DNA of 57,529 nucleotides from Escherichia coli (GCF_003334355.1 NZ_QOWP01000025.1), one strand, 5' to 3'. Positions 6,130 through 9,956 are shown, counted from the first letter of the stretch. The notes: generated by a model not told the origin, from the sequence alone. A program made the numbers and translations.

Positions 6130-6744
6130 GATTGTCTGCTCCCCTGTCTTGTTATGGGAGCAGTATTCAGGAATAAAAACATTCATTAAAAGAATTAGTC
6201 GTTATCGCACAGATGATTTTATTCTTAGCAAAAAAACGGCTAAGGAAAGATTAAATATGCAATTACTCCGTTCTAACAATTGGGAAAATTACTACACTTC
6301 ATTTTAGTGATGCATAAACAACCACATTACGAGATTTATTACTTCATTATTTCTATCAATATCAATACATATAATAAAACTATTATATTCGCATTGTATA
6401 TATCACTGTATCATTCTCAATCACTCGCATATTACATTCACATAATGTATATAAACAATACTTGTTCACAGAACATATTTTTTAAATGCAATTAATTGAC
6501 AAACTAAATCACATCTAAATACAATGTATAAAACAAAATAACTATACATACCAAACATACAAACACTTAACATATGAATTGCATAAAAACATTACCCAGT
6601 CGAACCTCTGGGTCTGAAAGCCCTTGCTTTTCAGTTATTAGCAACATTTAACATTTATAAATTAACATCTGGCTGCGCCAGAGATTACGTCTCTGAGTGC
6701 ATCGTTGTGCTTGTAGTATAATAAATAAAATGGAGTGTCATTAA

Positions 6745-7416
6745 GTGGATAAGGTTTTAGATTCAGCCCTCCTTTCTTCGGCAAATAAAAGAAAGGGTAT
6801 CCTTGCTATTGGCGCACATCCTGACGATATAGAATTAGGCTGTGGCGCATCGCTTGCTCGTCTTGCGCAAAAAGGAATTTATATCGCAGCCGTGGTGATG
6901 ACTACCGGCAACTCTGGTACAGATGGAATAATCGATCGCCATGAAGAATCGCGCAACGCCCTAAAGATATTAGGGTGCCACCAAACTATTCATCTTAATT
7001 TTGCTGACACCCGCGCTCATTTACAGCTCAATGATATGATTTCCGCTCTGGAAGACATCATTAAAAATCAAATTCCTTCTGATGTTGAAATCATGCGGGT
7101 ATATACCATGCATGATGCCGACCGCCATCAGGATCATCTCGCTGTTTATCAAGCTTCAATGGTTGCCTGCCGCACTATTCCACAAATTCTCGGCTACGAA
7201 ACCCCAAGTACCTGGCTTTCATTTATGCCTCAGGTTTTTGAATCCGTTAAAGAAGAATATTTCACAGTCAAACTTGCTGCATTAAAAAAACATAAAAGCC
7301 AGGAACGACGCGATTATATGCGTCATGATCGCCTGCGTGCAGTTGCACAATTTCGCGGGCAACAGGTCAATAGCGATCTGGGTGAAGGCTTTGTAATTCA
7401 TAAAATGATTCTTTGA
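6745..7416 (+). CDS. yaiS: PIG-L/LmbE-family N-acetylglucosaminyl deacetylase-like protein; start codon uncertain (GTG)
   Basis: 223-aa ORF with LmbE-type motif GAHPDDIELGCG near the N-terminus; AT-rich. Confidence 0.75.
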   Translation: MDKVLDSALLSSANKRKGILAIGAHPDDIELGCGASLARLAQKGIYIAAVVMTTGNSGTDGIIDRHEESRNALKILGCHQTIHLNFADTRAHLQLNDMISALEDIIKNQIPSDVEIMRVYTMHDADRHQDHLAVYQASMVACRTIPQILGYETPSTWLSFMPQVFESVKEEYFTVKLAALKKHKSQERRDYMRHDRLRAVAQFRGQQVNSDLGEGFVIHKMIL

Positions 7417-7425
7417 GCAAATTGC

Positions 7426-8622
7426 ATGAAAACCTGGATATTTATCTGTATGTCCATAGCAATGTTGCTATGGTTTTTAAGTACGCTAAGACGTAAACCC
7501 AGTCAAAAGAAAGGCTGTATTGACGCCATTATACCTGCGTATAACGAAGGCCCGTGTCTGGCGCAGTCACTGGATAATCTACTGCGTAACCCTTATTTTT
7601 GCCGGGTAATTTGCGTTAACGACGGCTCCACGGACAATACCGAAGCGGTCATGGCGGAAGTCAAACGCAAATGGGGCGACCGCTTTGTTGCCGTCACGCA
7701 AAAAAATACCGGTAAAGGTGGTGCGCTGATGAATGGCCTCAATTATGCCACCTGCGACCAGGTTTTTTTAAGTGATGCCGACACCTATGTTCCGCCCGAT
7801 CAAGACGGAATGGGCTATATGCTGGCAGAAATTGAGCGCGGTGCTGATGCCGTAGGCGGCATTCCCTCTACTGCGTTGAAAGGCGCGGGGCTGTTACCGC
7901 ACATCCGCGCGACCGTAAAGTTGCCGATGATTGTTATGAAGCGCACGCTACAGCAGCTCCTGGGCGGCGCACCGTTTATTATCAGCGGTGCCTGCGGAAT
8001 GTTCCGTACTGATGTATTGCGTAAGTTCGGTTTCTCAGATCGTACTAAAGTCGAAGACCTTGATCTCACCTGGACATTAGTGGCAAACGGCTACCGTATT
8101 CGGCAGGCGAATCGCTGCATCGTATACCCACAGGAATGCAACAGTCCGCGTGAGGAGTGGCGTCGCTGGCGGCGTTGGATTGTGGGCTACGCGGTCTGTA
8201 TGCGCCTGCATAAAAGGCTTTTATTTAGCCGCTTCGGTATCTTCAGTATATTTCCTATGCTGTTGGTTGTGATTTATGGCGTTGGGATTTATCTCACTAC
8301 CTGGTTTAATGAATTCATCACCACCGGGCCGCATGGTGTGGTGTTGGCAATGTTTCCGCTTATTTGGGTCGGCGTAGTTTGTGTTATTGGTGCTTTTAGC
8401 GCCTGGTTTCATCGTTGCTGGTTGTTGGTGCCTTTAGCGCCGCTTTCCGTTGTGTATGTATTATTAGCTTATGCCATCTGGATTATTTATGGACTTATTG
8501 CCTTTTTTACTGGACGCGAACCTCAGCGCGACAAACCCACCCGCTATTCCGCACTGGTGGAAGCGTCAACCGCTTATTCCCAACCTTCTGTCACAGGAAC
8601 TGAAAAACTATCTGAAGCTTAA
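7426..8622 (+). CDS. yaiP: Family-2 glycosyltransferase with N- and C-terminal membrane segments (synthase-like)
   Basis: 398-aa ORF; IIPAYNEGPC and VICVNDGSTDNT GT2 motifs, DxD-like SDAD, hydrophobic C-terminal third. Confidence 0.85.
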   Translation: MKTWIFICMSIAMLLWFLSTLRRKPSQKKGCIDAIIPAYNEGPCLAQSLDNLLRNPYFCRVICVNDGSTDNTEAVMAEVKRKWGDRFVAVTQKNTGKGGALMNGLNYATCDQVFLSDADTYVPPDQDGMGYMLAEIERGADAVGGIPSTALKGAGLLPHIRATVKLPMIVMKRTLQQLLGGAPFIISGACGMFRTDVLRKFGFSDRTKVEDLDLTWTLVANGYRIRQANRCIVYPQECNSPREEWRRWRRWIVGYAVCMRLHKRLLFSRFGIFSIFPMLLVVIYGVGIYLTTWFNEFITTGPHGVVLAMFPLIWVGVVCVIGAFSAWFHRCWLLVPLAPLSVVYVLLAYAIWIIYGLIAFFTGREPQRDKPTRYSALVEASTAYSQPSVTGTEKLSEA

Positions 8623-9181
8623 TGTTAAAGAGAAAAATATTCAGATTGCAGACCAGGTAATTATTGATGAAACTGCAGGTGAAGTTGTTATCGGCGCGAA
8701 TACCCGTATTTGTCATGGTGCCGTTATTCAGGGTCCGGTAGTGATTGGCGCAAACTGCCTGATAGGTAATTATGCGTTTATTCGTCCTGGCACAATAATC
8801 AGCAATGGTGTAAAAATTGGTTTTGCCACCGAAATTAAAAATGCGGTTATTGAAGCGGAAGCAACGATTGGTCCGCAATGTTTTATTGCCGACTCGGTAG
8901 TTGCAAACCAGGCATATTTGGGCGCACAAGTACGTACCAGTAATCATCGTCTGGATGAACAGCCTGTGTCTGTTCGAACTCCAGAGGGAATTATCGCTAC
9001 CGGATGCGATAAATTAGGTTGTTATATCGGGCAGCGTTCACGCCTTGGCGTACAAGTTATAATTTTGCCTGGGCGAATTATTTCCCCGAACACGCAACTT
9101 GGCCCGCGCGTGATTGTAGAACGTAATTTACCTGCCGGAACTTATTCACTCCGACAAGAACTTATCCGTACAGGAGATTAA
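8471..9181 (+). CDS. yaiX: Hexapeptide-repeat acyltransferase (YaiX-like), not IS-interrupted; start unresolved and possibly frameshifted near the 5' end
   Basis: 236-aa open frame with left-handed beta-helix hexapeptide repeats (VIGANTRI, VIGANCLIGNYAFI, IGFATEI); frame is open from inside yaiP with no ATG after the yaiP stop; an ATG at 8622 (TAATG overlap) is in the -1 frame. Confidence 0.6.
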   Translation: MPSGLFMDLLPFLLDANLSATNPPAIPHWWKRQPLIPNLLSQELKNYLKLNVKEKNIQIADQVIIDETAGEVVIGANTRICHGAVIQGPVVIGANCLIGNYAFIRPGTIISNGVKIGFATEIKNAVIEAEATIGPQCFIADSVVANQAYLGAQVRTSNHRLDEQPVSVRTPEGIIATGCDKLGCYIGQRSRLGVQVIILPGRIISPNTQLGPRVIVERNLPAGTYSLRQELIRTGD

Positions 9182-9182
9182 A

Positions 9183-9956
9183 ATGATAAAACGGACGTTA
9201 TTAGCGGCGGCCATTTTTAGCGCATTGCCCGCTTATGCCGGGTTAACTTCCATTACCGCGGGCTACGATTTTACCGATTATTCTGGCGATCATGGCAACC
9301 GTAATTTAGCGTATGCTGAACTGGTGGCGAAAGTTGAAAACGCAACGCTGCTTTTTAATCTTTCCCAGGGGCGTCGTGATTATGAAACTGAACATTTCAA
9401 TGCCACTCGCGGTCAGGGTGCGGTCTGGTATAAATGGAATAACTGGCTGACAACCCGAACGGGTATTGCCTTTGCGGATAATACGCCGGTCTTTGCCCGC
9501 CAGGATTTTCGTCAGGATATTAACCTGGCCCTGTTGCCAAAAACGCTTTTCACGACCGGTTATCGCTACACTAAATATTACGATGATGTCGAAGTCGATG
9601 TCTGGCAAGGCGGCGTATCACTCTATACTGGCCCGGTGATCACCAGCTACCGCTATACCCATTATGACTCCAGCGATGCAGGTGGTAGTTATAGCAATAT
9701 GATTTCCGTGCGTCTGAATGACCCGCGCGGCACTGGTTATACGCAACTATGGCTAAGCCGTGGAACAGGCGCTTACACCTATGACTGGACGCCAGAAACA
9801 CGCTACGGCAGCATGAAGAGCGTCAGTCTGCAACGTATTCAACCGCTGACTGAGCAACTTAATCTCGGGCTGACGGCAGGTAAAGTGTGGTACGACACCC
9901 CAACCGATGATTATAACGGTCTGCAACTTGCAGCCCATCTGACCTGGAAATTCTGA
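9183..9956 (+). CDS. yaiO: Outer membrane protein YaiO
   Basis: 257-aa ORF with signal peptide MIKRTLLAAAIFSALPAYA and C-terminal aromatic residue (…TWKF). Confidence 0.9.
   Translation: MIKRTLLAAAIFSALPAYAGLTSITAGYDFTDYSGDHGNRNLAYAELVAKVENATLLFNLSQGRRDYETEHFNATRGQGAVWYKWNNWLTTRTGIAFADNTPVFARQDFRQDINLALLPKTLFTTGYRYTKYYDDVEVDVWQGGVSLYTGPVITSYRYTHYDSSDAGGSYSNMISVRLNDPRGTGYTQLWLSRGTGAYTYDWTPETRYGSMKSVSLQRIQPLTEQLNLGLTAGKVWYDTPTDDYNGLQLAAHLTWKF

Follow-up and report, generated by a model that had tools for sequence, protein, structure and literature searches.

What does the yaiS-yaiP-yaiX-yaiO operon (yaiSPXO) of Escherichia coli make? We addressed this question in a 57,529-nucleotide stretch of E. 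coli DNA (GCF_003334355.1, NZ_QOWP01000025.1), hereafter the window, which carries the four genes on its plus strand at 6745-9956. An earlier note on this DNA had read them as a small surface-polysaccharide system, resembling a minimal machine for poly-N-acetylglucosamine (PNAG). We found no published characterisation of the yaiSPXO product. The four genes form a real, conserved and horizontally mobile module. With a probability of about 0.65, its inner-membrane glycosyltransferase YaiP would polymerise and translocate a sugar of the N-acetylhexosamine type, YaiS and YaiX would edit the N-acyl state of that sugar in the cytoplasm, YaiO would be the exit, and the product would be a cell-cell adhesin. 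Read in this way, as a surface-glycan module with an outer-membrane protein, the polysaccharide idea of the earlier note is probably right in part.

A mobile four-gene module

The open reading frame (ORF) listing shows four tightly packed ORFs. They and the elements around them are as follows.

6130-6744, no strand: divergent intergenic spacer between yaiS and tauA, measured from the annotated tauA start as placed by alignment to strain PSS-12
6393-6420, minus strand: sigma-70 promoter-like site of tauABCD, TTGAGA-16-TACAAT
6496-6525, plus strand: sigma-70 promoter-like site of yaiS, TTGACA-18-TACAAT
6745-7416, plus strand: yaiS, GTG start, 223 aa, intact
7282-7401, minus strand: ykiC-like ORF of 39 codons, antisense within the 3' end of the intact yaiS
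7426-8622, plus strand: yaiP, 398 aa, predicted inner-membrane synthase of glycosyltransferase family 2 (GT2)
8489-9181, plus strand: yaiX (probable start; the ORF opens at 8471), intact, without the insertion sequence (IS) element IS2
9183-9956, plus strand: yaiO, 257 aa, outer-membrane beta-barrel by prediction and published location
9967-9988, plus strand: GC-rich hairpin GCCGCCC-gctatccg-GGGCGGC, directly 3' of the yaiO stop, without a U-tract

The genes follow each other with a gap of 9 nt between yaiS and yaiP, an overlap of yaiX with the 3' end of yaiP, and a gap of 1 nt between yaiX and yaiO. A Shine-Dalgarno GGAG precedes yaiS at 6731-6734, and that of yaiO (9172-9175) lies inside yaiX. 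Scans for internal terminators and promoters within the operon gave counts no higher than expected by chance, and we infer that the four genes are co-transcribed. The hairpin at 9967-9988 is a possible 3' boundary of the operon; it was read by eye from the sequence, was not called by the terminator scan, and precedes the frmR promoter.

The arrangement is conserved. We scanned one genome per species (100,044 species) for the motifs and then ran tblastn with the four window proteins. Loci were found in E. whittamii, Citrobacter, Superficieibacter, Ignatzschineria, Lysobacter, Stenotrophomonas, Pseudomonas viridiflava, Acinetobacter and Sphingomonas. All 24 loci with a YaiP at least 52% identical carry all four genes in the same order (one locus ends at a contig edge); where the only GT2 is a distant one (23-27% identity), the three further genes are absent. 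On contigs with a YaiP 62-69% identical, including Pseudoxanthomonas and Acinetobacter, genes for a PIG-L protein, a GT2, a left-handed beta-helix (LbH) protein and YaiO stand in this order amid unrelated neighbours. Loss of co-conservation, which the earlier note had named as fatal to its reading, is thus not what we see in distant taxa. Identity falls from YaiP (52-85%) through YaiX and YaiS (41-82%) to YaiO (26-80%). With E. whittamii and two Citrobacter copies as references, every gene has a ratio of non-synonymous to synonymous substitution rates (dN/dS) within 0.04-0.13, and all four are under purifying selection.

Within E. coli, the region 6187-9956 is matched in 4933 of 5426 complete genomes, the other 493 being without the locus; 4252 (~78%) match at least 80% of it. 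IS1 or IS2 insertions and truncated YaiO or YaiP occur in some genomes. Several matching places, up to 7, were seen in some E. coli genomes, and Citrobacter braakii ATCC 51113 holds two diverged whole cassettes on separate contigs; their YaiP proteins share 81% and 79% identity with that of the window. Among the loci examined, the tau and frm flanks are confined to Escherichia, and the flanks vary by host.

Diverged plasmid copies (60-91% nucleotide identity) occur in E. coli, Salmonella and Enterobacter. The plasmid search returned 56 records, among them a few chromosomes entered under plasmids; 38 of the records are typed as conjugative. One cassette, 91% identical, lies on the conjugative IncF plasmid KS-NP019_P1 (NZ_AP024124.1; stretch 6953-10151), ~4 kb from cnf2, the gene for cytotoxic necrotizing factor 2. 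Another is on the IncI plasmid pSA31IncI1, with IS66-family elements annotated upstream.

The 558-bp spacer 6187-6744 has a GC content of 28.9%, against 52.4% for the whole window. Of the genes, yaiS (43.8%; 35.7% at third codon positions) and yaiX (44.0%; 32.5%) are clearly AT-rich, while yaiP (49.6%) and yaiO (50.0%) are near the window average. The layout given in the earlier note, four co-directional genes behind a very AT-rich leader of ~560 bp, agrees with the ORFs and with this spacer. Its term AT-rich islet suits the spacer, yaiS and yaiX but not yaiP and yaiO, and the leader, though AT-rich, is not purely that of yaiS, as the region 6130-6744 is common to the divergent tauA promoter. 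The note had also taken the low GC content as a sign of horizontal acquisition. Mobility itself is supported by the varied flanks and the conjugative plasmids, but the GC content of the cassette goes with that of its host and runs from 29% (Acinetobacter) up to 67% (Stenotrophomonas). Composition alone is therefore weak evidence of transfer, and we rejected GC content as proof of a recent one.

The upstream neighbour is the divergent tauABCD on the minus strand and the downstream neighbour is frmRAB. The DNA of 6187-9956 is 100% identical to that of strain PSS-12. In tauA (minus strand, ~5750; ORFs 5262-5660 and 5713-6186), the window has a frameshifting 95-bp deletion relative to PSS-12, between short CGGCT repeats. 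A search of the 5426 complete E. coli genomes with the deletion junction listed full-length matches that all consist of two pieces spanning 166 bp, none of which carries the deletion. It is probably either particular to this strain or an error of assembly. On the frm side, a long near-perfect palindrome at 10060-10120, TATACTATAGGGGGGTATGCATTGACATATATCATACCCCCCTATAGTATA, overlaps an frmR promoter-like site (10089-10117) and is presumably the FrmR operator. This palindrome also gave spurious weak matches to miRNA families in Rfam.

The four proteins and what they would make

YaiP matches PF00535 and related GT2 Pfam families. Residues D66, D117-x-D119, E210-D211 and R247/W248/R250/W251 are invariant in 29 orthologs, which places the motifs of processive GT2 enzymes (D, DxD, (T)ED, Q(Q/R)xRW) in YaiP, but with the Gln as an invariant Arg. 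By BLASTP, YaiP is 29% identical to K-12 PgaC over 241 aa (E = 2e-19); NDGSTD, DxD and (T/V)ED pair up in the alignment, and QRLRW of PgaC stands opposite R247-W-R-R-W251 of YaiP. The lack of GT2 catalytic residues, which would have undone the polysaccharide idea, is therefore not the case. The best NCBIfam model for YaiP is PgaC_IcaA (TIGR03937, an equivalog; E = 7e-29 over residues 23-286, the next best model reaching 4e-11), but at 101 bits against a cut-off of 422.3 YaiP falls outside that family.

The protein is laid out as a transmembrane (TM) helix at ~1-22, a cytoplasmic GT-A domain at ~32-240, an interface helix at 241-261 and three C-terminal TM segments at 264-364, and the AlphaFold model (pLDDT 78) has the same parts. 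The TM region fused to the glycosyltransferase domain superposes on the channel-forming region of solved synthases. The cytoplasmic tail EPxRDKPTRY is conserved; a PilZ-like motif for cyclic di-GMP in this tail was considered and rejected, because orthologs do not keep the first Arg of the apparent RxxxR. In the inner membrane, YaiP would polymerise a nucleotide sugar on the cytoplasmic face and pass the chain through its own TM region, acting like PgaC, hyaluronan synthase or BcsA. Compared with class I hyaluronan synthases, BcsA and chitin synthases, to which its identity is 14-16%, YaiP is much smaller, with ~4 TM helices instead of six to eight, no PilZ domain and Arg for the motif Gln.

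YaiS matches PF02585 (PIG-L, E = 6e-25) and, over its full length, the BshB1 model (E = 2e-22, profile positions 4-223 of 226). Among proteins of known structure, it is nearest to the archaeal diacetylchitobiose deacetylases and to enzymes of the BshB type. It keeps GAHPDDxELGCG, DRHQDH, H.SQ, FRG and EGF, among which GAHPDD and H-Q-D-H are invariant in 19 orthologs, and so has both the Pfam match and the zinc-binding and catalytic motifs (A/P)HPDD and HxxH of the PIG-L/LmbE family. Its 223 aa fit the ortholog lengths of 205-233 aa. From these sequence features, YaiS is predicted to be a cytoplasmic PIG-L/LmbE zinc de-N-acetylase.

For yaiX, the candidate starts are ATG 8489 (230 aa), ATG 8471 (236 aa), the start of the K-12 record at 8510 and the CTG at 8600 chosen by PGAP (193 aa). 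YaiX proteins of Enterobacterales share the start MDLLPFLLD, which is ATG 8489, and the ortholog alignment shows a conserved N-terminal WW; orthologs outside Enterobacterales begin M-W-W, overlapping the last yaiP codons (ATGTGGTGGAA, ..VVE* in the yaiP frame). ATG 8489 is the probable start. The Pfam matches LbH_EIF2B and Hexapep identify YaiX as a hexapeptide LbH protein. Its best NCBIfam and PDB matches are the C-terminal acetyltransferase domains, acting on GlcN-1-P, of archaeal GlmU-like enzymes and of ST0452 (E = 6.5e-23, gapless over 158 residues), with secondary matches to LpxD models (1e-11). YaiX keeps the equivalent of N331, but the catalytic-base His (H363 in GlmU, H308 in ST0452) is a Pro within i-G-P-q-C-F in all 19 YaiX orthologs. 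Some LbH N-acetyltransferases function without a catalytic base, which is compatible with YaiX activity. No signal peptide and no hydrophobic segment was found in YaiS or YaiX, and for this reason we place both in the cytoplasm.

YaiO scores 184.5 bits against the cut-off of 32 for its family (TIGR04390/PF19413). It has a signal peptide (1-19), a predicted 14-strand barrel (pLDDT 90.5) and the aromatic C-terminus WKF, the marks of that family. Its outer-membrane location has been shown experimentally, according to a citation of Marani 2006 in PMC4453288. The earlier note would have failed if YaiO were not an outer-membrane protein, which is not the case, and the domain searches bear out all four of its protein types (PIG-L, GT2, hexapeptide and outer-membrane). 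The family is small, with 184 clusters at 50% identity among 1.84 billion representatives. A relationship of YaiO to porins with tetratricopeptide repeats (TPR) was rejected, as strong family members are all stand-alone barrels of ~260 aa. In longer TIGR04390 proteins (367-544 aa), the YaiO barrel follows an N-terminal extension that matches SPOR weakly, and the gene of one of them is translationally coupled to a UDP-GlcNAc 2-epimerase gene (metagenome contig, 394-3221), a hint at a link between the wider YaiO-domain family and polymers of amino sugars.

The gene yaiO is in wide use as an E. coli-specific 'orphan gene' target for PCR (PMC4453288). Clear homologs with 26-80% aa identity are nonetheless present in Citrobacter, Salmonella, Stenotrophomonas, Acinetobacter, Pseudomonas and Sphingomonas, and plasmids carry them too. 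A screen of uropathogenic E. coli for altered expression of type 1 fimbriae also recovered a transposon insertion in yaiO (PMC6727828).

Evidence for an activity of the whole comes from K-12. EcoGene 3.0 states that repaired yaiX' in K-12 'facilitates clumping during vegetative growth', and that clumping needs YaiP, 'encoded in the yaiX operon', as quoted there from a meeting abstract by Dague et al. 2011 (PMC3531124). The expressed product would then be a cell-cell adhesin that causes clumping. The sugar used by YaiP is most probably UDP-GlcNAc or a derivative, since all three enzyme families point to GlcNAc/GlcN chemistry. In the cytoplasm, YaiS and YaiX would act on a precursor, a primer or the non-reducing end and alter the N-acyl state of the amino sugar; they would not act on the exported polymer. 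YaiO would provide a small 14-strand pore across the outer membrane, through which we infer that the product is exported.

The comparison with pgaABCD of E. coli and icaADBC of Staphylococcus that the earlier note had suggested leaves only part of its PNAG-type machine standing. The likeness lies in a synthase-dependent layout of GT2, deacetylase, acyltransferase-like protein and outer-membrane barrel, and in an aggregation phenotype. The synthase is homologous, but YaiP is a distant paralogue (29% identical to PgaC, 101 vs 422 bits, R for Q in QxxRW). The deacetylases PgaB and IcaB are extracytoplasmic members of carbohydrate esterase family 4 (CE4), whereas YaiS is a cytoplasmic PIG-L protein, and no similarity between YaiS and PgaB was found. 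IcaC is a membrane O-succinyl/acetyl-transferase, to which the soluble LbH protein YaiX is unrelated. PgaA has a 16-strand barrel and periplasmic TPR, YaiO has 14 strands and no TPR, and again no similarity between the two was found. The cassette has no counterpart of the small partner PgaD/IcaD, and no c-di-GMP element was recognised in yaiSPXO. It is not a member of the Pga/Ica family and is alike only as a GT2 synthase with accessory enzymes and an outer-membrane pore. E. coli also carries pgaABCD elsewhere, and because of this a distinct product is likely.

The Xanthomonas operon xagABCD invites another comparison. It has four genes, the second a GT2, is needed for biofilm formation, makes a polymer 'yet to be established', and co-exists with pgaABCD in X. 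oryzae pv. oryzicola (PMC3609779, PMC8042644). We found no Xanthomonas YaiP locus in the motif scan, nor among the top 120 relatives of the Stenotrophomonas YaiP. The operon, set beside yaiSPXO by description only, is a candidate lead and not a match.

Several points weigh against a YaiP-made polymer that is edited by YaiS and YaiX and leaves through YaiO. YaiP has Arg for the canonical Gln of QxxRW in every ortholog, and ~4 TM helices are a small number for a synthase that also translocates. The cassette encodes no partner of the PgaD, IcaD or BcsB kind, the orthologous loci have the four genes only, and the ORF list has no conserved small membrane ORF on the plus strand. A chain already in the channel cannot be reached by a cytoplasmic deacetylase. 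The pair of deacetylase and acetyltransferase looks futile unless the acyl groups or substrates differ, and YaiX may not be an enzyme, because the catalytic His of GlmU and ST0452 is replaced by Pro. The closest structural relatives of YaiO are the uptake porins CymA and OmpG and not the 16-strand exopolysaccharide secretins, which rank lower (PelB, 15.4; PgaA, 14.3; BcsC, 14.0), and YaiO has no periplasmic TPR domain. Lastly, the clumping evidence is one meeting abstract quoted in a database paper, and no polymer has been isolated so far.

CymA and OmpG are 14-strand monomeric sugar channels. They are 6-13% identical to YaiO, with no detectable sequence relationship, and belong to catabolic operons, in which they serve uptake; YaiO, by contrast, goes with a synthase. 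A catabolic reading, in which porin and chitobiose deacetylase serve uptake, was rejected: a GT2 synthase in the membrane serves anabolism, and an inner-membrane transporter, a kinase and a glycosidase are all missing from the cassette.

In the LpxC/LpxD step of lipid A synthesis, and in the pairs of LmbE-type deacetylase and N-acyltransferase of glycopeptide antibiotic pathways, GlcNAc is de-N-acetylated and re-acylated with a different acyl group. The second enzyme of the Lpx pair, LpxD, is an LbH protein like YaiX, but the fold of LpxC is unlike PIG-L, and YaiX is short and lacks the catalytic His. By analogy with the logic of LpxC/LpxD or NodB/NodA, we put forward tentatively, as a minority expectation, that yaiSPXO is a fifth exo- or oligosaccharide system of E. 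coli, in which a minimal synthase resembling PgaC or HAS would be teamed with YaiS and YaiX, N-acetyl would be swapped for another acyl group before or during polymerisation and the product would exit via a TPR-less 14-strand porin, a mechanism that would be unlike Pga, Bcs, Pel and Nfr. The missing catalytic His of YaiX tempers this idea.

Somewhat less likely still is a pathway like that of Nod factors, with YaiP making short chito-oligomers like NodC, YaiS deacetylating the non-reducing end as NodB does, YaiX re-acylating it and YaiO serving as exit pore. NodABC likewise consist of a GT2 of ~400 aa at the cytoplasmic face (1+3 TM), a de-N-acetylase and an N-acyltransferase; YaiP (398 aa, one N-terminal TM, glycosyltransferase domain, three C-terminal TMs) has the size and layout of NodC, and YaiP, YaiS and YaiX all face the cytoplasm, as do NodABC. 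The closest solved relatives of YaiS take the acetyl group from the non-reducing GlcNAc of chitobiose, the cassette lacks a periplasmic scaffold for handling a polymer, and YaiO has the fold of oligosaccharide porins such as OmpG and CymA. However, the NodC model matches YaiP weakly (4e-7, over the N-terminal 100 residues) against 7e-29 for PgaC/IcaA. YaiS, a PIG-L protein, is unrelated to NodB (CE4), and YaiX, an LbH protein, to NodA; YaiX resembles users of acetyl-CoA but lacks their usual catalytic His. There is an outer-membrane barrel instead of an inner-membrane exporter of the NodIJ type, and clumping is more typical of a polymeric adhesin.

It is improbable that YaiP is a non-processive polyprenyl-phosphate glycosyltransferase of the GtrB/ArnC/DPMS kind, loading GlcNAc on undecaprenyl phosphate for deacetylation by YaiS, with a product that decorates lipopolysaccharide, enterobacterial common antigen or another envelope glycan. 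By sequence alone, the closest solved chains to YaiP do include ArnC, GtrB and DPMS, but these matches cover only residues 32-148, the generic N-terminal half of GT-A. The founding member of PIG-L acts on lipid-linked GlcNAc (GlcNAc-PI, in glycosylphosphatidylinositol synthesis) at the cytoplasmic membrane face, and there is precedent in ArnC and ArnD (the latter acting on Und-P-Ara4FN) for a GT2 and a deacylase working in succession. In fold and membrane anchor, though, YaiP does not superpose better on GtrB, ArnC or DPMS than on processive synthases, and its xRW motif on the interface helix and ED base are typical of the latter. The cassette has no flippase or periplasmic GT-C enzyme, yet it moves as exactly four genes across very different hosts, and the outer-membrane barrel would have no role.

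Lesions in K-12 and an H-NS-bound spacer

Alignment to the K-12-derived strain EV36 helps to explain why the operon has had little attention. In K-12 yaiS, a CAG to TAG change at window position 7300 hits the invariant Gln186, and the 185-aa K-12 YaiS is a nonsense truncation that has lost 38 C-terminal residues, including the Q of H.SQ, FRG and EGF. The amber codon is absent from yaiS of the window. In exact searches with a yaiS 61-mer, 2213 genomes had the intact form and 355 the amber form, the listed examples of the latter being mostly K-12-type laboratory strains. The second lesion is IS2, which sits in yaiX of EV36. The earlier note had missed the nonsense codon but had described K-12 yaiX as broken by IS2, and EV36 confirms this; its further statement that no IS lies inside yaiX here holds as well, the region being 100% identical to PSS-12, in which the gene is uninterrupted. 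K-12 is thus a double mutant (yaiS amber and yaiX::IS2), and the window has the wild-type, intact operon.

The operon has hardly been studied, partly because the K-12 copy is broken in two places, and knock-out or over-expression data on yaiSPXO from K-12 are therefore uninformative. This includes a 2026 study, which reports that an over-expressed 71-aa fragment of K-12 YaiX led to multidrug tolerance and silkworm virulence, with a weaker effect of the intact 236-aa YaiX; the study terms YaiX uncharacterised, and its abstract and two of its sections do not discuss the operon (PMC13058169).

Annotation adds to the problem. PGAP marks the identical, uninterrupted yaiS of PSS-12 (window 6745-7107) as an incomplete pseudogene, and the gene that it annotates in its place is the antisense ykiC-like ORF. 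This pseudogene call is an annotation artefact that masks the intact operon in many RefSeq genomes, where intact YaiS is often so labelled. The ykiC-like ORF, hypothetical according to PGAP, differs by one residue (S15P) from the K-12 YkiC sequence printed in PMC6001520. In K-12, the ykiC ORF sits downstream of the yaiS amber codon.

The promoter scan places the promoter-like site of yaiS (6496-6525; 11 of 12 hexamer matches) ~220 nt upstream of the start codon, and this near-consensus sigma-70 promoter would drive the operon in E. coli. Genomic SELEX with RpoD assigns the identical two hexamer pairs to yaiS and tauA, and flags the spacer as an H-NS site (PMC3946193); the yaiS/tauA spacer is also listed as an H-NS-associated 'promoter island' (PMC3661553). 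The earlier note had suggested H-NS silencing. For K-12 this is supported by the literature just cited, and silencing is plausible in the present strain. The query region, including the spacer, is 99% identical between the window and EV36. We propose that the operon is normally silent because its promoter is embedded in the AT-rich, H-NS-bound spacer. An antisense RNA inside yaiP has been described (PMC4666370). A regulatory RNA in the yaiS leader was considered and rejected, with no credible Rfam match and an unremarkable fold of the 5' untranslated region (z = -1.9).

It is very improbable that the E. coli locus is a silenced, decaying remnant without current function, its intact frames here being incidental: the H-NS-bound spacer with low K-12 expression, the two K-12 lesions, the IS1/IS2 insertions and truncated YaiO or YaiP of some genomes and the 493 of 5426 genomes without the locus would fit such decay, but at least 80% of the region is kept in 4252 complete genomes, intact yaiS outnumbers the mostly laboratory amber form (2213 vs 355), all four genes show a dN/dS of 0.04-0.13 in comparisons with E. 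whittamii and Citrobacter, the cassette is kept on conjugative plasmids and in distant genera, and the repaired K-12 operon yields a phenotype.

The genes were already annotated, and clumping had been mentioned in print. Added here are the strict four-gene module across Proteobacteria and plasmids, the families and cytoplasmic location of the accessory enzymes, and the status of K-12 as a double mutant while most isolates are intact. If an N-acyl-swapping system is indeed encoded, it would have been overlooked through the two K-12 lesions and H-NS silencing in natural strains, and the plasmid copies, including the one with cnf2, would represent a transferable adhesion or colonisation factor. 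The enzymes encoded suggest that a glycan of amino sugars is edited in the cytoplasm, which is undescribed in known synthase-dependent systems. The surface polymers of E. coli (cellulose, PNAG, colanic acid, capsules and the NfrB-dependent polymer) affect biofilm formation, colonisation and phage sensitivity, and one more conserved surface-polymer system would extend that list.

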